DNA of 64,000 bases from assembly GCF_046105845.1 (NCBI RefSeq), contig NZ_CP151004.1; one strand, 5' to 3'. The notes under the pieces were generated by a model that searched no databases, was not told the DNA's origin, and saw only the letters and a program-made list of their open reading frames with translations. Both the position numbers and the translations under genes were made by a program. Positions 2,521 to 47,268 of this stretch are shown one piece after another. Each line of letters starts with the position of its first letter. Within the stretch, counting starts at the first letter, position 1. The DNA is from Escherichia coli. GTDB taxonomy: Bacteria > Pseudomonadota > Gammaproteobacteria > Enterobacterales > Enterobacteriaceae.

Positions 2521-2927
2521 GTGAAAAGGTGGTGTTCAGTCAACTGAGCCGTAAATTTATTGATGAGAACGATGCCACGCCCGCCGAGGCGCAGCAGGTG
2601 GTCTATTACAGCCTGGCGATTGGTCACCACCTTGGGGTTATCGATTGCCTGGAAGCGGCGCTCACCTGTCCGTGGGATGAATATCTGGCATGGATTGCCA
2701 CTCTGGAGGCGGGCAGCGAAGCCCGCCGCAAAATGGAAGGCGTGCCGAAATATGGTGAGATCGTCATCGACATTAACCATGTGCCGATGCTGGCCAACGC
2801 ATTCGATAAAGCCCGGGCAGCGCAAACTTCGCAGCAGAAGGAATGGAGTACAATGCTGTTAAGTATGCTGCATGATATTTATCAGGAAAACGCCATCTAT
2901 TTGATGGTGAGGAGATTGCGTGACTGA
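2517..2927 (+). CDS. hycH: Formate hydrogenlyase maturation protein
   Basis: 136 aa; ATGA overlap with hycG; operon position. Confidence 0.9.
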
Positions 2928-3390
2928 CGTTTTACTCTGTGTTGGCAATAGCATGATGGGCGATGATGGCGCAGGCCCGCTACTGGCGGAAAAGTGCGCC
3001 GCCGCGCCGAAAGGTCACTGGGTGGTGATTGACGGCGGTAGTGCACCGGAAAACGACATTGTCGCTATTCGCGAACTGCGCCCTACGCGACTGCTGATTG
3101 TCGACGCCACTGATATGGGGCTAAACCCCGGCGAGATCCGCATCATCGACCCGGATGACATCGCCGAGATGTTTATGATGACTACCCATAACATGCCGTT
3201 GAACTACCTTATCGACCAGTTGAAAGAAGATATTGGCGAAGTGATTTTCCTCGGCATCCAGCCGGATATCGTCGGCTTTTACTACCCGATGACCCAGCCG
3301 ATTAAAGATGCGGTGGAAACCGTTTATCAACGACTGGAAGGCTGGGAAGGGAATGGCGGATTCGCGCAGTTAGCGGTGGAAGAAGAGTAG
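2920..3390 (+). CDS. hycI: Hydrogenase-3 maturation endopeptidase
   Basis: 156 aa, N-terminus [22 protein letters not shown]; overlaps hycH end by 8 nt. Confidence 0.92.
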   Translation: MTDVLLCVGNSMMGDDGAGPLLAEKCAAAPKGHWVVIDGGSAPENDIVAIRELRPTRLLIVDATDMGLNPGEIRIIDPDDIAEMFMMTTHNMPLNYLIDQLKEDIGEVIFLGIQPDIVGFYYPMTQPIKDAVETVYQRLEGWEGNGGFAQLAVEEE

Positions 3391-28071: not shown

Positions 28072-28164
28072 GGTGAGGTGGCCGAGAGGCTGAAGGCGCT
28101 CCCCTGCTAAGGGAGTATGCGGTCAAAAGCTGCATCCGGGGTTCGAATCCCCGCCTCACCGCCA
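28072..28164 (+). tRNA. serV: tRNA-Ser (anticodon GCU)
   Basis: 93-nt cloverleaf with long variable arm, anticodon loop cuGCUaa, encoded CCA. Confidence 0.9.
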
Positions 28165-28167
28165 TTT

Positions 28168-28244
28168 GCATCCGTAGCTCAGCTGGATAGAGTACTCGGC
28201 TACGAACCGAGCGGTCGGAGGTTCGAATCCTCCCGGATGCACCA
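28168..28244 (+). tRNA. argV: tRNA-Arg (anticodon ACG), copy 1
   Basis: 77 nt gcatccgtagctcag...gatgcacca; anticodon loop cuACGaa. Confidence 0.9.
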
Positions 28245-28378
28245 TATTCTACATATTTTCAGCGATGAAGGTATGGAAGAGGTGGCGGTAATAACCGCAG
28301 GCACTAGGGAGGATAACGTTGCTTTAGCAACGGCCCGAAGGGCGAGCCGCAAGGCGAGTAATCCTCCCGGATGCACCA
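28245..28378 (+). repeat. Inter-tRNA repeat unit ending in a 19-nt copy of the tRNA-Arg 3' end
   Basis: aatcctcccggatgcacca at 28360..28378 identical to the tRNA-Arg 3' end; the unit has a paralogue at 28800..28932. Confidence 0.6.
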
Positions 28379-28442
28379 TCTCTTACTTGATACGGCTTTA
28401 GTAGCGGTATCAAAAAATCTGCAGTAAAGTAAGTTTCCCGAT

Positions 28443-28519
28443 GCATCCGTAGCTCAGCTGGATAGAGTACTCGGCTACGAACCGAGCGGTCGGAGGTTCG
28501 AATCCTCCCGGATGCACCA
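28443..28519 (+). tRNA. argY: tRNA-Arg (ACG), copy 2
   Basis: Identical 77-nt tRNA-Arg sequence. Confidence 0.88.
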
Positions 28520-28582
28520 TCTCTTACTTGATATGGCTTTAGTAGCGATATCAATATCAGCAGTAAAATAAATTTTCCCGAT

Positions 28583-28659
28583 GCATCCGTAGCTCAGCTG
28601 GATAGAGTACTCGGCTACGAACCGAGCGGTCGGAGGTTCGAATCCTCCCGGATGCACCA
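28583..28659 (+). tRNA. argZ: tRNA-Arg (ACG), copy 3
   Basis: Identical 77-nt tRNA-Arg sequence. Confidence 0.88.
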
Positions 28660-28722
28660 TCTCTTACTTGATATGGCTTTAGTAGCGATATCAATATCAG
28701 CAGTAAAATAAGTTTTCCCGAT

Positions 28723-28799
28723 GCATCCGTAGCTCAGCTGGATAGAGTACTCGGCTACGAACCGAGCGGTCGGAGGTTCGAATCCTCCCGGATGCACCA
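28723..28799 (+). tRNA. argQ: tRNA-Arg (ACG), copy 4
   Basis: Identical 77-nt tRNA-Arg sequence. Confidence 0.88.
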
Positions 28800-31708: not shown

Positions 31709-31781
31709 AAAAAGGCCACTCGTGAGTGGCCAAAATTTCATCTCTGAATTCAGGGATGATGATAACAAATGCGCGTCTTTC
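31709..31781 (-). ncRNA. micA: MicA (SraD) small regulatory RNA
   Basis: Minus strand reads gaaagacgcgcatttgttatcatcatccctgaattcagagatgaaattttggccactcacgagtggccttttt, i.e. the MicA sequence with its terminator hairpin. Confidence 0.9.
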
Positions 31782-33528: not shown

Positions 33529-34232
33529 GATTGTTCTCCATAGGTGAACTCATGGGCCATCCGCGCCCGTTGCCAGTGGCGTTTCCAGTGTACGGTAGTT
33601 TTGACATGATTTTTGCGTACATACTTGAAGACGTTATGCGAAAAGTCAGCGACGGAAAACGCATCACGATTCCGGCTGACAATGCCTTCCAGCGTACAGG
33701 GTTGCCCGGTTTGTGTATCCCAGGGATCGAACGCGCCGCGCGCATTGGTCAGCGCCAGAAAATCACGTTGCCAGCTTTTTTCATCATTCCCCGGCTGCGG
33801 GCCGGAGATTTCGGGAACGCAGGGGAAATCAAACAGAGCGGCGTAAAACTGCACCTCTTCCCAGCTCAGCCACATATCCTGGCAGCGAACGGCAAACAGA
33901 TAAAAATCCTGCTCCAGGGCGCGATATTCAATCGAATGGACGGCATAAAGATTTTCACCAAACAACTCCAGATCGCCGAGATCGTTTTTCAGCAGTTGCC
34001 AGCGTTGGCGAATTTTATAGGTCCATGCCGACTGCGTAGGCGCGGCATGGGAACGGGCAAACACGCCGTAGCGGTTAAGGCAGTTATTTTCACCGTCGAG
34101 TTTTTCTGTGTGCACCAATTGCGTGATGGCCTGTAAATCCTGCCAGTAATCGGTGTTAATACGGTCATCGCTGGTGGTGCCAGGGGAGAAAGGATAATGC
34201 CAGGTTCTCCCGTATTTTCGTTGGGTATTCAT
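33525..34232 (-). CDS. ATP-dependent RNA ligase, Rnl2-like nucleotidyltransferase
   Basis: 235 aa; motif [10 protein letters not shown] (KxDGxN), motif III-like [11 protein letters not shown], motif IV-like EGIVSR, motif V-like FKYVRKNH. Confidence 0.65.
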
Positions 34233-34456
34233 AATAATCCATTATTTTGTGTGTAATAAATGTACGCCCGCGAGGGTGCGAGTTATGGGGTTAAAAGAAA
34301 AATGTGAGTATCACCCGCGAAAGCGAGGGCGAAGGAAAAAGAGAATTAACAACCTGAGCGAATGCTCAGAACCGGTTAATGGTGAATGGAAGAGTTTGGG
34401 GCGGCGAAAAGATACACCGAATGAGTGGATAAAACAACCGTTTGCAAAATGAGCAA

Positions 34457-34480
34457 ATAAAAAGGGAGCCGCAGCTCCCT
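34457..34480 (-). terminator. Intrinsic terminator of emrB
   Basis: Minus strand: gggagctgcggctccc hairpin followed by tttttatttg. Confidence 0.7.
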
Positions 34481-34489
34481 TTGACAACC

Positions 34490-36028
34490 TTAGTGCGCAC
34501 CACCTCCGCCGCCACCTGCGCCAAATGGCGGTTTAGCAAACCACACCAGCCCCAGCAGGACGAGGAATATCCCAGCTGACATCCAGAAGATCTCATTGGC
34601 GGAAATAATCAGCCCCTGATTGGTGATCTGCTGGGCAATCCAGCCTGATGCCTGCTGTTGCGTCATCCCAAGCCCTTCCAGTTGACTATACATCGCCTGG
34701 GCATTCGGGTTGAACGGGTTTACCGACTCAGTCAACTGCGCATGGTGCATCGACTCGCGGTTGGTCCACATGGTAGTGGTTATCGACGTGCCGATAGACC
34801 CCGCCAGCGTTCGCGTAAAGTTAGAGAGGCTCGATGCTGCCGCCAGTCGTTCCGGTGGCAAACCAGACAGCGTAATGGTGGTCAGCGGCATAAAGAAGCA
34901 GGCCACCGCAAAACCCTGGATAAACTGCGGCCAGGCCGACGCGCCAAAATCCATACCTGGTTCAAAGGTATAGGCACGCCAGTAGAAGCAGACGGCATAC
35001 ATAATAAAGCTGAAGGTTACCAGCCGCCGCATATCCAGTTTATGCGCGAAGCGGCCGATAATCGGCGACAGGATCACCGGAATAATTCCTACCGGCGCAG
35101 AGGCCAGACCTGCCCACGTTGCCGTGTAACCGTAGACCTCCTGCAACAACTGCGGCAGCAGAACAATCGCGCCGAAGTAGAGCATATACGCGAGGCTGAT
35201 ACACAAGCAGCCGATGGTGAAGTTGCGCGACTTAAACAACGACAGATCGACTATCGGGTTATCGTCGGTCAGCTCCCAGACAATCAGGAAGCAGATAGCC
35301 ACCACTGCCACCACGGTAAGGATGATAATTTCCTGTGATGAGAACCAGTCCAGCTCTTTACCGCGGTCGAGCATAATCTGCAGGCTACCGATACCAATAA
35401 CCAGCAGTGCCAGCCCCACGGCATCAATCCGCCGCCGTTCGGTGCGGGTTTCACGTCCGCGCAGGGTTTGCAGTGTCATCAACACCACCGCCACGCCAAT
35501 CGGTACGTTGATGAAGAATATCCAGCCCCAGTGGTAATTGTCACTGATATACCCGCCGAGGATCGGGCCGCAAATTGGCGCGACAATCACCGTCATCGAC
35601 CACAACGCCAGCGCGATCGAGCGTTTGGCTGGCGGGTAGTTATTCAGCAATAGACTTTGCGAAAGCGGAATTAACGGCCCGGCGACAATCCCCTGAATCA
35701 CGCGGAAGAAGATCAGCATATTCAGGCTGCTGGAGACACCACACGCCCACGACGCAATAGCAAAGGCGATGGTTGACCAGAGGAACAGTTTCACTTCCCC
35801 GACGCGCTTTGCCAGCCAGCCGGTAAGCGGGATCGAGATGGCATTCGCCACCCCGAAAGAAGTGATTACCCACGTTCCCTGGCTGAGCGATGAGCCCAGA
35901 TTCCCGGCGATAGTGGGGATCGCCACGTTAGCAATGGTGGAGTCCAGCACCTGCATGAATGTCGCCAGTGACAGCGCAATCGTCATAATGACCAGTTGCG
36001 CGCCTTCCAGCGGTTTTTGCTGTTGCAT
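34490..36028 (-). CDS. emrB: Multidrug efflux MFS permease (14-TMS DHA2)
   Basis: Start at MQQQKPLEGAQL; large hydrophobic protein downstream of emrA. Confidence 0.93.
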   Translation of the reverse strand: MQQQKPLEGAQLVIMTIALSLATFMQVLDSTIANVAIPTIAGNLGSSLSQGTWVITSFGVANAISIPLTGWLAKRVGEVKLFLWSTIAFAIASWACGVSSSLNMLIFFRVIQGIVAGPLIPLSQSLLLNNYPPAKRSIALALWSMTVIVAPICGPILGGYISDNYHWGWIFFINVPIGVAVVLMTLQTLRGRETRTERRRIDAVGLALLVIGIGSLQIMLDRGKELDWFSSQEIIILTVVAVVAICFLIVWELTDDNPIVDLSLFKSRNFTIGCLCISLAYMLYFGAIVLLPQLLQEVYGYTATWAGLASAPVGIIPVILSPIIGRFAHKLDMRRLVTFSFIMYAVCFYWRAYTFEPGMDFGASAWPQFIQGFAVACFFMPLTTITLSGLPPERLAAASSLSNFTRTLAGSIGTSITTTMWTNRESMHHAQLTESVNPFNPNAQAMYSQLEGLGMTQQQASGWIAQQITNQGLIISANEIFWMSAGIFLVLLGLVWFAKPPFGAGGGGGGAH

Positions 36029-36044
36029 CACACGCACCTCTGGA

Positions 36045-37217
36045 TTAGCCAGCGTTAGCTTTTACGATATCGTCGATCAGTTTATTGACAGGTGCCAGGC
36101 TGATTTCACGCGCGGTGCTTACCGCTACCGGTGTGGAACGTACTTTATTTGCCAGTACCTGACCGTCACGGTTAGTGGTATTGACGCTCACCAGCGTGGA
36201 TAAACCGATACGCAGCGGGTATTGCTCCAGCTGTTTTTGGTCCAGTTCGATACGAACAGGCAGACGCTGAACGACTTTGATCCAGTTACCAGTCGCATTT
36301 TGCGCCGGAAGCAGCGAGAACGCGCTACCTGTGCCCATATCCAGACCAACCACTTTACCGGTGTATTTCACATCATCGCCGTAAATATCGGTGGTGATGG
36401 TGACCGGCTGACCGATGCGCATATTGGCAATCTGCGTCTCTTTAAAGTTGGCATCCACCCACATATTGGTGGCTGGAACGACCGCCATTAGCGGCGTCGT
36501 TGGGCTAATTTGCGCCCCAGGCTGTACCGCGCGGCGGGAGACATAACCGGTCATCGGACTGACAATACGGGTACGCTCCAGCGCCAGCCAGGCGTTACGT
36601 ACTTCGGTGGCAGCCTGTTGCACGGCAGGCTGATCTTCCAGTTTAGTCCCCAGAATCATCGCCTGATTGGCATTGTATTGTTGAATAGCGACGTCCAGTT
36701 GTGCCTGGGCACTGGTAACGGCGTCGCGGGCGTGTTGCAGCTCTTCGCGACCAATCAGGTTGGCATTGCCCAGCGGCACACGGCGGTTGTAGTCGCTTTG
36801 TGCTTTCGCGAGGGCGATTTTTTGCACCTCAATATTCGCCTGCAACTGTTTGCTGTTAATCATCAGCTGGTGGGTTTGGCGAACGCTGGAAGCCAGTGCA
36901 GTTTTGGCTTTTTCAAACGCCTGGCGAGCATCTGTCGGGTCGAGAGTGACCAGAACATCGCCTTCTTTTACAAAATCGGTGTTATCGGCCCAGACTTTCG
37001 TCACGCTGCCAGACACCTGAGACATAATTTGAATCTGATTCCCTGCCACGTATGCGTCATCGGTTTCTTCGAAATGACGCAGTACCAAAAACCAATAAAT
37101 CCCTATCGCTACGGCAATAATTATAAAGAGCAAGGTGAGAAGGAGGAGCAGACGCTTACGTTTGCCGCTCTTCTTTACCGGTTGCTGCGGGGTTTGAGTC
37201 TCCGCATTTGCGCTCAT
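36045..37217 (-). CDS. emrA: Multidrug efflux membrane fusion protein
   Basis: Start at MSANAETQTPQQ; single TM then coiled-coil/lipoyl-like domains. Confidence 0.93.
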   Translation of the reverse strand: MSANAETQTPQQPVKKSGKRKRLLLLLTLLFIIIAVAIGIYWFLVLRHFEETDDAYVAGNQIQIMSQVSGSVTKVWADNTDFVKEGDVLVTLDPTDARQAFEKAKTALASSVRQTHQLMINSKQLQANIEVQKIALAKAQSDYNRRVPLGNANLIGREELQHARDAVTSAQAQLDVAIQQYNANQAMILGTKLEDQPAVQQAATEVRNAWLALERTRIVSPMTGYVSRRAVQPGAQISPTTPLMAVVPATNMWVDANFKETQIANMRIGQPVTITTDIYGDDVKYTGKVVGLDMGTGSAFSLLPAQNATGNWIKVVQRLPVRIELDQKQLEQYPLRIGLSTLVSVNTTNRDGQVLANKVRSTPVAVSTAREISLAPVNKLIDDIVKANAG

Positions 37218-37272
37218 ATTGTTCTCCACGATCTTCTTAACTCATCGGCTGAGCCGACCTGCTTGCCAAAAA

Positions 37273-37296
37273 GGCCAGCATGTTGCGATGCTGGCC
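37273..37296 (-). promoter_or_regulatory. Perfect hairpin between mprA and emrA (possible attenuator/processing site)
   Basis: ggccagcat-gttgcg-atgctggcc flanked by an A-run and a T-run. Confidence 0.45.
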
Positions 37297-37343
37297 AGTC
37301 ATTTTTTCTTTTATAAATCTGGATTTTTGAGCGAGATGACGCG

Positions 37344-37874
37344 TTAGCTCATCGCTTCGAGAACCACACCGTCTTGTTCCATCTGGTCGAGACGGGAGAG
37401 CAATTTGCGGGTGATTTGCTCGAGCTGATCTTTTTCTGTTGTGCTGAGCGCGGACCAGAGTTGATGCAGGCAGTTATGCTGCGGTGGTAAAACCTCGCGC
37501 AAAAACTCGTGACCTTTTTCCGTTAATTGCAGATGCAGGCAGCGGCGATCGTTATCGCTTTCACGACGTTCAATCCAACCGCGTTTTTCCAGTTCATCGG
37601 CAATACGCGTCGCGTTGGTACGGGATGATCCAAGAGCACAACTCAATTCAGAAGGCTGAATACTGTGGTTTTCCTGAGACTCCAGCGTAATCAACGCCAT
37701 AAACAACGTCTCGTTAATCCCCTGAGCCTTCAGCATTTTATTGCGGTTCTCCAGCAGCTTGCTTTGCATGTGCATGCAAAGACGGGTCAGAAGGATCTCC
37801 TGATAAGGAAAATCTTCGTGGCGGCTGGCGCGAAATTTTAGCATTTGTTCAATGGGCGTAAACGAACTATCCAT
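37344..37874 (-). CDS. mprA: MarR-family repressor of emrAB
   Basis: 176 aa with MarR winged-HTH region. Confidence 0.93.
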
Positions 37875-37964
37875 TTGGGTATGACCTCATTAATTTCAGC
37901 CGATATAGTAACGACAGTGACAAATAAAGTAAATGTATTGTTTTAGAAAAATGATTCTTGTGGG

Positions 37965-38300
37965 TTATATAATCGCCATCACTTTCCAGGCGAGCCCGTA
38001 GGCCAGCGCACTAAGCAGTGTTGGGATGATAATGCTGCGTGTTTTATAGAAACTGGCACCCAGTACCGCGAAGCCGACCAGCGTGGGCACGAAACGGCGT
38101 GTATCGTGCATCACTTCTGGTGCGGTAGAGACAACCAGCAGAGCGCATATCGAGGCGATGCCAATGGTGTCGAGCAATATGCCTATCGCGCCACGTTTGG
38201 TTGGGCGGGTATTACCCACACGCAGGCGCAGCGGCAAATAGCGGAAGCAATAATTCGCCGCGCCAACCAGTAACCCAAGCAGCAGAACCTCATAGCTCAT
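37965..38300 (-). CDS. ygaH: Branched-chain amino acid (valine) exporter small subunit, AzlD-like
   Basis: 111 aa hydrophobic; overlaps ygaZ end. Confidence 0.85.
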
Positions 38301-39027
38301 CGGGCGCTCCTTGCCAGAATGCCTGGATTAACGCAGTGAGGCAGCCACAGACAATGCCTGCCAGAATGGCGACGGGAATAGAAAATAGCGTTACGCCTGC
38401 AAGGGCACCAACTAACGCTGCGGTAACGCAAAGAGATTGTTTGCGCTGGAAAGAGGCGAGCAGGAAACTCATAAAGAGTGCCGGAAGCATAAAACCTAAT
38501 GCTGCTTCAACGGCGGGATATCCTTGCAGCAAGCCGCTGCCGGAGAATGCCCCTATTACCGTACCAAATACCCACGATGACCATGAACTGAAGGCAATGC
38601 CGATCATCCAGTTCTCGCTCCAGCGGCGATTATTGCGTACCAGTTTTGCGGTTGCGGCGGCAAAAACCTCATCCGTCAGGCCAAATGCCCACAGGGCGGT
38701 TTTCGATTTTTGCAGACGCTGAATAATACGGCTACGCAGTGACGGGCCATACAAAACATGGCGAACATCCATTGCCATGACGGTCAGTGCAGCAACCCAC
38801 AAACTACTCCCGGCTGCCAGCATCGCGGTAATGACGAACTGGCTCGCGCCTGCATAAATGATGCAGGAGAAAAAAACGCTTTCGAGAGGAGAGAATCCCA
38901 GACGGGTCGCATTCAGACCGAACGCAAAGGCCACCGGAATATAACTAATAACAATCGGTAAACTGTCTTTGCATCCTTCCATGAAGGTCGCCGAACCAGG
39001 AGCAGGCTGTGGAGTAGGGCTTTCCAT
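38290..39027 (-). CDS. ygaZ: Branched-chain amino acid (valine) exporter large subunit, AzlC-like
   Basis: 245 aa polytopic membrane protein. Confidence 0.85.
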
Positions 39028-39150
39028 AGAGTGTACGCTTAACGATTGTTAATATTATAAATAGACTGAATGAATATCTTAACCTTATCAGACTGATGGG
39101 CTTCTTAACACCCTTATAAGTGTAAAGCCACGAAAACGGTTGCTGATTGC

Positions 39151-40335
39151 TTAATTTGCGGCTTCCTGACGATGAAAACCTCGCCACCAGACCAGTAAGT
39201 TAACCAGGGCAATCGTCGCGCCAGCCAGACAAACGCCAGCCCAACCGCCATGTTGCCAGGCTGAGGCTGAAATTAGCGAACCGGCGGCACCGCCAATAAA
39301 GTAGCTGGTCATGTAACCTGCGGTCAGGCGATTACGCGCATCAGGGTGTATTCGATAAATTACCGTCTGGTTAGTGATATGCACGCCCTGCACGGTGAGA
39401 TCCAGCACCAGGATGCCGATAATCAGCGCCAGTACGGAAGTGTGACCAAACCAGATCGCCAGCCATGAAAGTAACAGCAGCAGCAGACCGAAAGTTGTGG
39501 TGTGGTGCGATTTACCCTTATCGGCAAAACCGCCCGCCGGACGAGCGCCCAACGCTCCGGCAGCTCCCGCAAGTCCAAACAGACCAATGACGCCATCGCT
39601 GTAATTAAAAGGTGGAGCGGCAAGCAAAAAGGCCATTGAGGTCCAGAGAATGCTGAAGTTGGCAAAGGTCAGGCAGCCCAGCAACGCGCGGGTGCGCAGA
39701 ATTTTATCGCTGATAAACATGCTGAAAACGGAACCCAACAACTGTGGGTAGTTGAGGTGGGTTTCTGATTTCATTTGTGGCAGACCACGCCATAATGCCA
39801 GCGCCATCAGTGCCATTAACACCGAGGCAACCCAAAAGACGGTGCGCCAGCCGCCGAGGTTTGCCAGCAACCCGGCAACGGTTCGTGCCAGCAAGATCCC
39901 CAACAGCAGCCCGCTCATAATGGTGCCGACCACTTTGCCGCGTTTGTCTGGTGAAGCCAGCGTCGCTGCCAGCGGAACCAGAATTTGTGCCACGACCGAG
40001 AATAAACCGGTTAATGCCGTACCGAGGATCATCATCGCCAGCGACTGACTGCTGGCGGTAATCAACATACCGCCCGCTGCCAGTAAGGTCATCGAGACAA
40101 TCAGGCGGCGGCGTTCAAACATATCACCGAGGGGAACAAGAAACAGCAGACCTGCGGCATAGCCCAACTGCGCGGCGGTAACAATAAAGCCCGCCGAACT
40201 GGCGGAAAGGGAAAAGTTACGCGCGATGGTGTCGAGCAATGGCTGGGCGTAATAGTTGCTGGCGACCGCCAGACCGGTGGCGATAGACATCAGTACGATC
40301 AGTGCCGGGCTAAGCTCATGATTAGGTTTAGTCAT
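39151..40335 (-). CDS. ygaY: MFS transporter (intact 12-TMS-type frame)
   Basis: 394 aa uninterrupted hydrophobic ORF between ygaZ and proX. Confidence 0.8.
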   Translation of the reverse strand: MTKPNHELSPALIVLMSIATGLAVASNYYAQPLLDTIARNFSLSASSAGFIVTAAQLGYAAGLLFLVPLGDMFERRRLIVSMTLLAAGGMLITASSQSLAMMILGTALTGLFSVVAQILVPLAATLASPDKRGKVVGTIMSGLLLGILLARTVAGLLANLGGWRTVFWVASVLMALMALALWRGLPQMKSETHLNYPQLLGSVFSMFISDKILRTRALLGCLTFANFSILWTSMAFLLAAPPFNYSDGVIGLFGLAGAAGALGARPAGGFADKGKSHHTTTFGLLLLLLSWLAIWFGHTSVLALIIGILVLDLTVQGVHITNQTVIYRIHPDARNRLTAGYMTSYFIGGAAGSLISASAWQHGGWAGVCLAGATIALVNLLVWWRGFHRQEAAN

Positions 40336-40489
40336 TATTTTTGTTCATCAGATGATGATTAAGCTGGAAATCAATAATAGCGGATGTTGATGAATATGGG
40401 ATGAAAGATAGATTGTTGAAATGTGCGGTGTGGTTTGTAGGCGTGATAAGACGCGTCAGCGTCGCGCATCCCTGCGCGGTTATCAATAT

Positions 40490-41482
40490 TTACTTCTGAG
40501 CTGCCAGCGCCTCATTCACCCAGCCATCGAACTGCTGCTGGTGGGCTTTGATCCAACCATCAACGTGGCCCTGAATATCGCCTTCTGAGGCTTTGCCGTC
40601 ATGCATAATGGCGTTCTGGGCGTTAATATCTGCCACTGGCAACTGCATAATGGCAAACAGTTTCGCTGCCGCCGGATTTTTCTCGGCCCAGGCTTTATTG
40701 GCAACGATATGCATGGTGCTGACCGGGAAGCCGTAATTCGCGCCATTCGGCAGTTTGGTATCGGCATTTTTATCGCCCGGCAGTGCGGAGAACGGCACCT
40801 GCAACCAGACCACATCTTTCCCCGGTTTCAGTTCGTTACTCACCCAGTACGGCGTCCAGGTGTAGTAAAACACCGGCTTACCCTCTTTGTAACGACTGAT
40901 GGTGTCAGCCATCATCGCTGCGTAGTTCCCCTGATTATGCGTCACGGTATTGGTCAGTCCATACGCGGCAAGCTGGTGGTTGATCGCACCTTCGCAGCCC
41001 CAGCCAGGGTTACAGCCGGTTAAATCCGCTTTACCGTCGCCGTTGGTATCGAACAGTTTGGCGATCTTCGGATCTTTCAGTTGCGCGATGTTGGTGATTT
41101 TGTACTGGTCGGCAGTTTTCTTATCGATCAGGTAACCCTGTGCCGCGCCGTTAACAAATACTCCTTCACGATAAAATTTCTTATCGCCACCGGCAGCTTC
41201 GTACATGTTGTCATGCAGTGGCGTCCAGTTCACTGCGGTGAAGGTTGCATCGCCGGAAGCAAGCGAGGTGTAGCCAACGTTGTAATCCACTTCGCTGGGT
41301 TTATTGACGGTATAACCTAATTTCTCCAGCGCGCGGCTGACCAGCAGCGTCTGGAAAGTTTCTTCGGTGATGGTGCTCTGAACCGGATTAACAGTAATGC
41401 CTTTGCCCGGCAGGTCGGCAGCAAAAGTTTGTGTAGAGATAAGCGTGGCAAACGCTGTCGCAAAAAGTACGCTATGTCGCAT
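40490..41482 (-). CDS. proX: Glycine betaine/proline ABC transporter periplasmic binding protein
   Basis: Start at [21 protein letters not shown] (signal peptide); ORF-track start 41524 judged an extension. Confidence 0.92.
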
Positions 41483-41539
41483 TGTTATTCCTTTTTTTGG
41501 CAGGGTGATAATGCCCGGCGTCACCGGGCAAGTGCAGAG

Positions 41540-42604
41540 TTACTTAATGAATGGGCGGGTCAGCAGACCGACAGGGCCAGTGGTGTACCAGCGACGGTTG
41601 CCGCGACTGCGTGAGTCGCGCCCAACGGCCTGCGTCAGGCGGTCGAGGATAATGGCGAGGATCACAATCCCGACGCCGCCAACGGTGGCAAGCCCCATAT
41701 CCAGACGACCGATACCGCGAAGTACCATCTGACCCAGCCCGCCGACGGCAATCATCGAGGCGATGACCACCATAGAAAGAGCCAGCATCAGCGTCTGGTT
41801 AACGCCCGCCATAATGGTCGGCATCGCCAACGGTAACTGAACTTTGAACAGCATCTGGCGCGGGCTGGCACCGAATGAGCGCGAGGCTTCAATCAGATCC
41901 GCCGGAACCTGATTAATTCCCAGAATAGTCAGACGGATAATCGGCGGCAGAGCAAAGATGATCGTCACCACCACGCCCGGCACGTTACCAATACCAAACA
42001 GCATGACGATTGGCACCAGATAAACAAACGCTGGCGTGGTCTGCATGGCATCAAGCAGTGGACGAATAATTTTCGCCGCTCGTGGACTTCTCGCCAGCCA
42101 GATCCCCAACGGCAAACCGATGACGATACAGAACAGCAGGGCGGTTAACACCAGCGCCAGAGTAACCATTGCCTGTGACCAGGCACCGATTGCGCCGATG
42201 GCAATCAGCGAAACCAGCGTCGCCACGCCCATTCCGACACCGGAAATTTGCCAGGCGATGAGAGCGAAAACGATAATCGCCACCGGCGCAGGCATACCCA
42301 GCAGCAATTGCTGGAAACCGTTGAGGATGTAATCAACCGGAACGCGCACGCCCTGGAAGACGGGACGGAAATGGGTAACGACCCAGTCGATCCCTTCAGT
42401 GACCCAACTGTCGAGTGGGATCAGCGTTTTATGGAACGGATCGAGAATATTAAAATGCTCGACGTTTGGCGCAGGCGTACTGGTCAGCCAGTCAGCACCA
42501 CCGCCGTCAGTCGGTGCAGTCGCCGGTGTACCCCAGGCGTCTGCGGATTGTGCGGCACTGTCCGCCGCTGGCGTTGTATCCCACGGATTATTTTGATCAG
42601 CCAT
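41540..42604 (-). CDS. proW: Glycine betaine/proline ABC transporter permease
   Basis: 354 aa membrane protein; overlaps proV end. Confidence 0.93.
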
Positions 42605-43799
42605 TATTTACCCCCTCACGATCTAAAGCGCGCAGCAGCATTCCTTTCGAAATGATGCCGACATACTGTTGGTCCTCGTCGACCACGGGCACCGCACAGG
42701 GGGCCTGTCCGACATGAGAGAGCAACTCGCTAAGAGGCGTTTGTGCATCGACCGCTAACGGCGCATCAATCAGCGCCGCATCAAGACCTTGCTGCTGCGT
42801 TAACGCGGTTTTAAGCGAATCGATAGACACTGCGCCGACAAACTTATTACCGCGTTCGATGACGTAGCCATATTCGCGATCTTCATCCTGCAATAATTTC
42901 AGTGCCGAACGCGGGCCGAAGCCGGGGGTTTTACGAATTAAGCCGTTCGGTGTCCGGCGAGCAATATCTTTCGCACTGAATACCTGACTAATATCGACGC
43001 CACGGAAGAAGGTACGGACATAATCATTCGCCGGATTATTGAGAATTTCATCCGGTGTGCCGACCTGTACCACTTCACCATTTTGCATAATGGCAATTCG
43101 GTCGCCAATACGCATGGCTTCATCGAGATCGTGGGAAATAAAGACAATGGTGCGCTGATGTTTCGCCTGTAATTTTACCAGCTCATCCTGCATCTCGGTG
43201 CGAATTAATGGATCGAGTGCCGAGAAGGCTTCGTCCATTAATAATATATCCGGATTAATCGCTAACGCGCGGGCTAATCCCACACGTTGACGCATCCCGC
43301 CAGAGAGTTCATCCGGGTAGCTGTGGGCATAATTTTCCAGCCCGACCTGACGCAGTGCATCAAGGGCTTTTTCACGGCGTTCTTCGGCATTAATTCCGGC
43401 CAGTTCCATACCGAACGCAGTATTGTCCAGCACGGTCATATGCGGCATTAAGGCAAAGGACTGGAAGACCATCGCAATCTTTTTTCTGCGCACCTCACGG
43501 AGTTCGGCGTCGGATATTTTGGCAATATCCACACCATCAATCAGCACTTGCCCGCGGGTGGGTTCAATCAGGCGATTGAGAAGGCGTACCATTGTGGATT
43601 TACCCGAACCGGATAATCCCATGATGACAAATATCTCGCCTTCTTCAATGGCCAGACTGGCGTCTTTTACGCCAAGCGATAGCCCAGTTTTTTCCAGAAT
43701 TTGTTCTTTTGAAAGTCCTTGTTCGATATATTTGAAAGCTCGTTGTGGATGCTCACCAAATATTTTATAAAGATTTTTAATTTCTAATTTAATTGCCAT
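42597..43799 (-). CDS. proV: Glycine betaine/proline ABC transporter ATPase
   Basis: Walker [13 protein letters not shown] signature LSGGMRQR, C-terminal CBS domains. Confidence 0.95.
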
Positions 43800-44154
43800 G
43801 CAATAGAAAGATTCCTGTTATTTGTTTATGTCGATACATTACCCAATGGAAATAGTCACTTTTTTCTACCCTAACATACTGAGAATTTGAGGCAACCCCT
43901 GACGGCAAATGTGGCATGAATATTGATGAGAGCAAATCGCCGGAATTTCCCGTGATATAAGGGCTGAGAGCGAATCGAGAAAAGTTGATATTTTTTGTCA
44001 AAGATAGCGAAAAAACGCCTGAATATTGTGGTTTCAGGCGAATAATGCAACAGAGTGTCAGTGTAGATCACCACAAAATATTTGCGTGATAAAAAGCTAT
44101 TTGGCGGGAATTATTTCCCTGCTGCGGGTAGTGATATTTTTGAAAATAACCCCC

Positions 44155-45123
<969 letters not shown>

Positions 45124-47268
45124 TTAAAGTGCACAGGAGACGCAGCCTTCAATTTCAGTGCCTTCCAGCGCCATCTGACGCAGGCGAATGTAGTAGAGCG
45201 TTTTGATACCCTTGCGCCAGGCGTAAATCTGCGCTTTGTTGATATCGCGAGTGGTGGCGGTATCGGGGAAAAACAGCGTCAGCGACAGCCCCTGATCGAC
45301 ATGGCGAGTCGCTTCGGCGTAGGTGTCGATGATCTTTTCTGCGCCGATTTCGTAAGCGTCCTGATACAGCGCCAGATTCTCGTTAGTCATAAACGGGGCA
45401 GGGTAGTAAACGCGTCCTGTTTTGCCCTCTTTGCGTATCTCTACTTTCGCCACAATCGGATGAATACTCGACGTGGCATGGTTGATATAAGAGATGGAAC
45501 CGGTTGGCGGCACCGCCTGGAGATTCTGGTTGTAAATGCCGTAGCGCATCACGTCGTCGCGCAGCTGCGCCCACATCTCACGGGTAGGTAACGTAATACC
45601 GCTACGGGTAAACAGTTCGCCAACTTTCGCCGTTTTCGGCTGCCAATTCCCTTGCAGATATTGGCTAAAATATTCACCACTGGCATAGCGTGACTGTTTG
45701 AACCCGGCGAAGGTTTCACCGCGTTCGCGCGCCAGCAACATCGAGGTACGCAGTGCGTGCCAGGTGATGGTATAGAAATAGAGATTGGTGAAATCCAGTG
45801 CTTCCGGCGACCCATAAGCGATGCCTTCTCGCGCCAGATAACCGTGTAAATTCATCTGCCCCAGACCGATGGCGTGTGAGGCGGCATTTCCGGCTTCGAT
45901 GGACGGCACGCTGCGGATATGACTCATATCTGACACCGCCGTTAAACCGCGCACGGCAGTCTCTACCGTGCGGGCAAAGTCGGGGGAATCCATGGTGTGG
46001 GCAATATTCAACGAACCTAAATTGCAGGAAATATCATGGCCTGTGCGGGCATAGTCGAGATTCTCGTCATACTCTGAGGCGCTGTTAACCTGCAAAATTT
46101 CTGAGCAGAGATTGCTCATATTTATGCGCCCGGCGATAGGGTTAGCACGGTTAACCGTGTCTTCATACATGATGTAGGGATAGCCGGACTCAAACTGGAT
46201 TTCTGCCAGTCGCTGGAAGAAATCACGGGCGTTGATGTATTTTTTGCGGATGCGTTCATCGGCTACCAGTTCGGCATAGTGTTCGCTGATGGCGATATCG
46301 GCAAACGGCTTGCCATAAACCCGCTCAACGTCATAGGGCGAAAACAGCGCCATCTGCGCATTCTCTTTTGCCAGATGGAAAGTGATATCCGGGATCACCA
46401 CGCCCAGCGACAGTGTTTTAATGCGGATTTTTTCGTCGGCATTTTCCCGCTTTGTATCGAGAAAACGCAGAATATCGGGATGATGAGCATGTAAATAGAC
46501 TGCGCCAGCACCCTGACGCGCGCCGAGTTGGTTGGCATAGGAAAATGCGTCTTCCAGCATTTTCATCACCGGAATCACGCCAGATGATTGATTTTCAATA
46601 CGTTTAATTGGCGCGCCCGCTTCCCGCAGATTCGACAGCAAAAATGCCACGCCGCCGCCGCGTTTCGACAGTTGCAGTGCGGAATTTACTGCCCGGCCAA
46701 TCGACTCCATATTGTCTTCAATACGCAGCAGAAAACAGGAAACCAGTTCGCCGCGCTGCTGCTTACCGCAGTTGAGGAATGTTGGCGTGGCTGGCTGAAA
46801 GCGTCCTGACAGCATCTCATCAGTGAGCTGCGTCGCCAGTGTTTCATCGCCTTGTGCCAGCGTCAGCGCCACCATCGTGACGCGATCGGCAAAATCTTCC
46901 AGATAACGCTTACCGTCGAATGTCTTCAACGTATAGCTGGTGTAAAACTTCCATGCTCCGAGGAATGTCTGGAAACGAAAACCGCTGGCGTGCGCGTGGG
47001 CAAACAGCGTAATGACAAAATCGCGAGAGTAGCGATTAAGGACGCTTTCATCATAGTAACCTTCGTTAACCAGCCAGTTCAGGCGCTGCTGCTGGCTACT
47101 GAAGGCCACACTGTTCGGACGCACATGTGTCGCCATAAAGGCGTCAACGGCCTGGCTGTCTTTATCGAACTGAATGCGACCTGCGCTATCGTAAAGGTTA
47201 AGCATCGCATTCAGCGCGTGGTAATCCATCGTTTCCTGCGTCAGGCGTTCTGCGGTTGTCGTTGCCAA
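45124..47268 (-). CDS. nrdE: Class Ib ribonucleotide reductase alpha subunit
   Basis: 714 aa; C-terminal CxxC (EGCVSCAL). Confidence 0.95.

Follow-up and report, generated by a model that had tools for sequence, protein, structure and literature searches.

YnfM of Escherichia coli, a characterised relative of the transporter considered here, is the CCCP-sensitive glutarate exporter of BL21(DE3), in which the ΔynfM mutation alone abolishes glutarate export (PMC12622518). It is also described as an arabinose-efflux candidate (PMC3429515), and arabinose efflux by YnfM appears in a TCDB table too. In a table based on TCDB, YgaY (P76628, 2.A.1.36.3) stands in the same YnfM (acriflavin-sensitivity) family without an assigned function (PMC5417439). 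In K-12 the gene is also known under the older name "(ygaXY)" (PMC3946193). It is called cryptic or a pseudogene in the literature, where its deletion routinely serves as a neutral control and its locus as a site for integration. The gene, its family, its pseudogene status in K-12 and the existence of intact alleles elsewhere are therefore already in public annotation or literature; the K-12 status is textbook annotation, and thousands of genomes have an intact allele annotated. A search of the searchable literature found no substrate, transport direction or phenotype for any YgaY ortholog.

In the 64,000-nt stretch of E. coli DNA that was analysed (contig NZ_CP151004.1, hereafter the window), ygaY occupies positions 39151..40335 on the minus strand and is intact, with an ATG start, 394 codons, a total length of 1185 nt and zero internal stops in both the six-frame list of open reading frames and the raw sequence. 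By chance, 394 sense codons in a row without a stop would occur with a probability of about (61/64)^394, or roughly 6e-9. The product matches the Pfam MFS_1 model (PF07690) with 142.2 bits against a gathering cutoff of 33.4 (E=2.6e-41), in agreement with the initial annotation, which had proposed an intact 394-aa MFS transporter at this position. RefSeq annotates a CDS of the same 1185 nt as "MFS transporter" in PCN033 and BL21(DE3). By megablast against 5426 complete E. coli genomes, PCN033 is the closest complete genome for the ygaY segment (99.2% identical), and the segment is about 97% identical to most E. coli strains. The encoded protein and its BL21(DE3) counterpart (WP_000165699.1) have the same sequence.

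The gene also lies beside the valine exporter and proU, as had been noted from the sequence. Directly upstream are the proU genes, of which proX is the last (40490..41482, minus strand; an open reading frame with coordinates transferred from the PCN033 annotation). Directly downstream, on the same strand, are the L-valine exporter subunit genes ygaZ (38290-39027, minus) and ygaH (37965-38300, minus), which together span 37965..39027 and were assigned from open reading frames and the RefSeq annotation of syntenic loci. In the window and in syntenic annotated records, the order on the shared strand is proV-proW-proX, ygaY, ygaZ-ygaH and emrR-emrA-emrB, and the flanking of ygaY by proX and ygaZ on the same strand is identical in K-12, PCN033, BL21(DE3) and Citrobacter.

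Over the 12 kb from 34000 to 46000, none of the 5424 matching complete E. coli genomes is more than 98.7% identical to the window; either the genome collection does not contain the window's lineage or the region is mosaic through recombination. Elsewhere in the window, Rfam matches at gathering level mark the MicA sRNA (31710-31781, minus), a single tRNA close to the end of the window (62778-62850, plus) and a cluster of five tRNAs (28072-28796, plus); at the position of the cluster, K-12 and BL21 carry one tRNA-Ser together with four tRNA-Arg.

The initial annotation had contrasted the intact frame with a disrupted ygaX/ygaY pseudogene in K-12, and the K-12 copy is indeed frameshifted rather than sharing the intact frame. 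RefSeq describes ygaY of MG1655 as an "MFS transporter" pseudogene, "frameshifted", of 1178 nt as against the 1185 nt in the window. Alignment with K-12, which the initial annotation had proposed for locating the mutation, places it precisely: in a MAFFT alignment of the ygaY genes of the window, K-12 and PCN033, a single indel separates the three, namely 7 nt absent from K-12. The missing segment, GGCAGCG, corresponds to gene nt 255-261 (codons 85-87), or window positions 40075..40081 on the minus strand. Its placement is ambiguous by 3 nt, with a GGC direct repeat on both flanks, as is typically seen where a deletion has arisen by slippage. The original frame ends in K-12 after 87 codons and the remaining 300 or so codons run unbroken in another frame, a split that explains the historical pair of names, ygaX and ygaY.

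To establish how widely the two states are distributed, we searched the 5426 complete E. coli genomes with window positions 39000-40500 as a megablast query. The locus was found in 5418 genomes, in 5412 of them at a coverage of at least 80%, and K-12 records aligned over 1459 nt as against 1466 nt in other strains. The genomes were then sorted by state with a 101-nt K-12 query that spans the deletion junction: the match was at 99% or more in 353 genomes and, as seven missing nucleotides would predict, at 80-95% in 5064. A 40-nt junction query, which seeds only on the deleted form, returned exactly 353 of the 5426 genomes, equal to the count from the longer query. Sixty rows sampled evenly across these 353 carriers are all K-12 derivatives or laboratory strains, including MG1655, W3110-type strains, BW25113, DH5alpha, DH1, C600, J53, JM109, TG1, MC4100, S17-1, O16:H48 mouse-colonisation strains and similar lines. 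The 7-nt lesion is specific to the K-12 lineage.

About 5060 complete E. coli genomes lack the deletion, and BL21(DE3) carries the intact gene. Intact orthologs of 393-394 aa, named merely "MFS transporter" in the catalogues, are present in E. coli, Shigella sonnei, S. flexneri, E. fergusonii, E. marmotae, E. albertii and Citrobacter. The Citrobacter protein is 93% identical to YgaY, and the one Citrobacter locus inspected has the order nrdEF-proVWX-MFS-azlC/azlD-like-marR-emrA-emrB, matching E. coli. Intact ygaY is thus the wild-type state, shared by related genera and by roughly 93% of the complete E. coli genomes; the unusual party is K-12 rather than the present strain, in which an intact ygaY is ordinary. 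As a separate case, E. coli PCP06021, from Galapagos seawater (L003 locus 2696-3158), has a deletion that takes out ygaZ and most of ygaY and retains a junction between ygaH and the MFS remnant, so that here a natural strain has lost the transporter independently.

The signals around the gene were examined in the two flanking spacers. The proX-ygaY spacer (40336..40489, minus; 154 nt, from the sequence and a four-strain alignment) contains one REP-like palindrome at about 40437-40479, just past the proX stop. Its length varies with REP copy number, from 154 nt in the window and PCN033 to 191 nt in K-12 and 291 nt in BL21(DE3), and the roughly 105 nt before the ygaY ATG are nearly invariant among the four strains. 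In these 154 nt a consensus scan of the gene strand yielded no strong sigma-70-like promoter, nor was a clear Shine-Dalgarno sequence seen before the ATG. Each of the four strains has a 6-codon open reading frame (ATGAACAAAAATAATGACTAA) that overlaps the ygaY ATG, probably one without significance. In the ygaY-ygaZ spacer (39028-39150), the scan identified a promoter-like site, TTAAGA-17-TATAAT (39054..39082, minus), with 10 of 12 consensus matches. Its hexamers are letter for letter those of the constitutive RpoD promoter of ygaZH in K-12 (PMC3946193), and the site would serve the downstream ygaZH genes.

Transcripts of ygaY are detectable in K-12 and rise after hyperosmotic shock, especially without StpA (PMC10656529 and its preprint). 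The salt-shock rise was read by the authors as read-through from proU, and an H-NS-dependent bridge joins the proU downstream regulatory element to ygaY (PMC10656529; bioRxiv 2026.02.10.705075). In the window, proX lies upstream as a source of possible read-through transcription into ygaY.

Substitution counts by the method of Nei and Gojobori bear on whether the protein itself matters to the cell. Outside the deletion, the window and K-12 genes differ at 32 synonymous and 0 nonsynonymous sites (dS 0.11, dN 0, dN/dS 0), and because the K-12 pseudogene has undergone no amino-acid-changing decay, its lesion must be very recent. The window differs from PCN033 by 9 synonymous and 2 nonsynonymous changes, and from Citrobacter at dS 1.01 and dN 0.044 (dN/dS 0.043). 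By these counts the YgaY protein has been conserved under strong purifying selection, which lends backing to the earlier suggestion that this strain may retain a functional transporter.

The deletion might in principle be read the other way round, with the short K-12 form ancestral and the intact frame a strain-specific restoration by gain of 7 nt in the window strain. Nothing beyond the formal symmetry of an indel speaks for this, and the outgroup comparison refutes it: the longer, in-frame sequence is shared by Citrobacter, E. fergusonii, E. albertii, E. marmotae and the approximately 5060 E. coli genomes, and the short form is confined to K-12 derivatives. A search for the 7-nt-shorter form among outgroups and most E. 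coli was run, and they do not carry it. Since both have the longer sequence, the polarity is that of a deletion in K-12 and not of an insertion in the window, and we give restoration practically no weight. The intact gene, which belongs to the core of Escherichia and Citrobacter, is the ancestral state, and the K-12 pseudogene arose by a recent, lineage-specific deletion between GGC repeats. A frame may nevertheless be intact and the gene silent or dispensable, that is, cryptic, with no promoter of its own, covered by H-NS and heading to loss. The spacer that yielded neither a sigma-70-like promoter nor a Shine-Dalgarno sequence is consistent with such a state, as are the H-NS signal and H-NS bridge at K-12 ygaY, the loss of the gene in K-12 without a known phenotype, where the locus serves as a neutral integration site, and the natural isolate with ygaZ-ygaY deleted. 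However, 32 changes against 0, together with a dN/dS of 0.04 at a dS of about 1, require long-term selection on the protein, the locus is kept in nearly all of the genomes searched, and its transcripts can be detected in K-12. We therefore consider a cryptic gene improbable. Our overall reading, which joins an ordinary functional ygaY allele in this strain, the 7-nt deletion in K-12 and the exporter mechanism proposed below, has by our own estimate a probability of about 0.9.

YgaY is a 12-helix major-facilitator transporter of the YnfM family. Its placement in TCDB 2.A.1.36 was tested by BLASTP, in which YgaY aligned end-to-end with K-12 YnfM, the founding member of the family, at 25% identity over 409 columns (E=2e-19). 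A search of NCBIfam equivalog models returned zero models at or above cutoff. Over its full length, YgaY aligns best within NCBIfam with efflux proteins, namely the SotB-type sugar efflux model PRK03545 (64 bits, cutoff 401), Cmx/CmrA and MxcK, the next two best scores being 52 (cutoff 400) and 50 (cutoff 201), and YgaY falls below every cutoff of the curated DHA1 models (Bcr/CflA, SotB-type PRK03545, EmrD and Cmx). A HMMER search of 1.84 billion representatives recovered 8983 relatives at E<=0.001, of which 1144 are at E<=1e-30.

Conservation in the family was assessed from an alignment of 76 full-length members. The TM1 signature N-Y-Y-x-Q-P-L-L is near-invariant. Motif A is present in the TM2-TM3 loop (P68-L-G70-D71-M-F-E-R75-R76-R77-L) and is echoed between TM8 and TM9 (G268-G-F-A-D272-K-G274). 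At least 90% of the members share G70, D71, R151, D272 and D312, and G268 is invariant; R151 in TM5 and D312 in TM10 are near-invariant. TM5 reads G146-I-L-L-A150-R151-T-V-A-G155, so that motif C of the DHA1 antiporters (G-x3-G-P-x2-G-G), sought in this helix, is absent, its "GP" being replaced family-wide by "AR". This replacement explains why YgaY is not filed under DHA1 (TCDB 2.A.1.2), and it also means that antiport cannot be assumed from that family.

An AlphaFold2 model built from the family alignment is an all-helical MFS structure with a pLDDT of 95.4 and a pTM of 0.93. In a Foldseek comparison with the PDB, SotB, MdfA and NorA came out on top (TM-score 0.80-0.85, about 385 residues, 15-18% identity). 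The twelve-helix architecture, in two halves of six, rests on superposition of the model on 12-TM structures (TM-score about 0.84) and on a consistent hydropathy profile. A sequence search of solved structures gave weak matches only, to GlcP over the N-terminal half and to SotB over the full length.

Two features of the database relatives were noted in passing. Nearly all near-identical YgaY proteins differ within residues 351-364 (window approximately 39244-39285), with the variants A351T/V/D/S/G/P, S356L/P, S358P/L/A, W360R/G/C/S, Q361K/R/H and G364S, and two large clusters of 3984 and 1043 members differ outside these residues. We rejected a mutational hot spot and regard the pattern as most likely an artefact of k-mer clustering in the database, for two reasons: the variable stretch is exactly 14 residues long, and the variation in the large clusters lies outside it. 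In addition, a YgaY-like ENA metagenome protein of 596 aa (P0001) has an internal tandem duplication of approximately residues 104-305, which is either an assembly artefact or real.

On the basis of family and fold, we propose that YgaY would act as a single-polypeptide rocker-switch carrier powered by the proton-motive force and would most likely export a small cytoplasmic metabolite. Organic acids or sugars would be the likeliest substrate class, given the export of glutarate and arabinose by the characterised relative YnfM. R151 in TM5 and D312 in TM10 are candidate substrate and proton sites, and a conserved arginine embedded in the membrane hints at an anionic or polar substrate. Transcription of ygaY is probably low and would come in part from proU read-through after osmotic upshift. 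Glutarate itself was considered, with YgaY as an exporter redundant with YnfM, and is disfavoured: BL21(DE3) ΔynfM exports none despite an intact ygaY, so that glutarate is unlikely to be the main YgaY substrate under those conditions.

The direction of transport cannot be read from MFS folds, and YgaY could instead be an importer, that is, a substrate:H+ symporter. The missing antiporter motif C would fit import, as would the resemblance of the N-terminal half to symporters (e.g., GlcP and the aromatic acid:H+ symporter family) and the occurrence of symporters such as DgoT and GlpT among the fold matches. However, exporters (SotB, MdfA, NorA, Cmx and MxcK) give the best matches in full-length sequence and in fold, the sole characterised members of TCDB 2.A.1.36 act in efflux and, as weak evidence, the flanking ygaZH and emrAB encode exporters. 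Import thus seems rather unlikely to us, and export by YgaY, as predicted from the sequence and the model, reasonably probable. A bolder version of export would tie YgaY to proU as an efflux valve or exchanger that is induced together with proU by osmotic stress and handles a compatible solute or stress metabolite. The support for such a role consists solely of the adjacency of proX and the salt-shock read-through in K-12. The neighbourhoods of homologs at 45-57% identity (P0124, P0126 and P0131) have nothing in common, the contexts being unrelated (flagellar genes, pheA/mutY and a chemoreceptor), and guilt by association from these distant homologs was accordingly abandoned. Because their neighbourhoods are not shared, the adjacency to proU looks like inherited Escherichia/Citrobacter synteny rather than functional linkage, and we hold the osmotic role to be very unlikely. 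If it were true, the 7-nt deletion would have masked it through decades of osmoregulation work in K-12.

The state of the locus has practical consequences, though modest ones. The K-12 lesion is a single, recent and repairable 7-nt deletion. For work on the substrate of this orphan transporter, K-12 is therefore a natural null, and BL21 and wild strains are natural positives. The strong purifying selection indicates that YgaY does something useful in nature, and the neutrality of the K-12 ygaY locus should not be presumed in other E. coli strains.

Compared with known systems, the window gene is the same gene as the catalogued YgaY (P76628, TCDB 2.A.1.36.3), with zero amino-acid differences from the K-12 frames outside the deleted codons; the K-12 gene differs from it in the 7-nt deletion, in the 32 synonymous sites and in upstream REP content. 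YnfM (TCDB 2.A.1.36.1) resembles YgaY in its TCDB family, in the TM5 arginine and in motif A, and is probably proton-coupled. It differs in sharing only 25% identity and in having a divergent LysR regulator gene, ynfL, whereas ygaY is without an adjacent regulator, and YgaY did not stand in for YnfM in glutarate export by BL21(DE3). The best structural neighbours of the model are SotB/YdeA, MdfA and NorA, which are DHA1 drug/sugar:H+ antiporters with solved structures and act as proton-coupled exporters. SotB shares with YgaY a weak full-length sequence similarity, but all three stand apart from YgaY in their identity of 15-18% and in the "GP" of DHA1 motif C, where YgaY has "AR".
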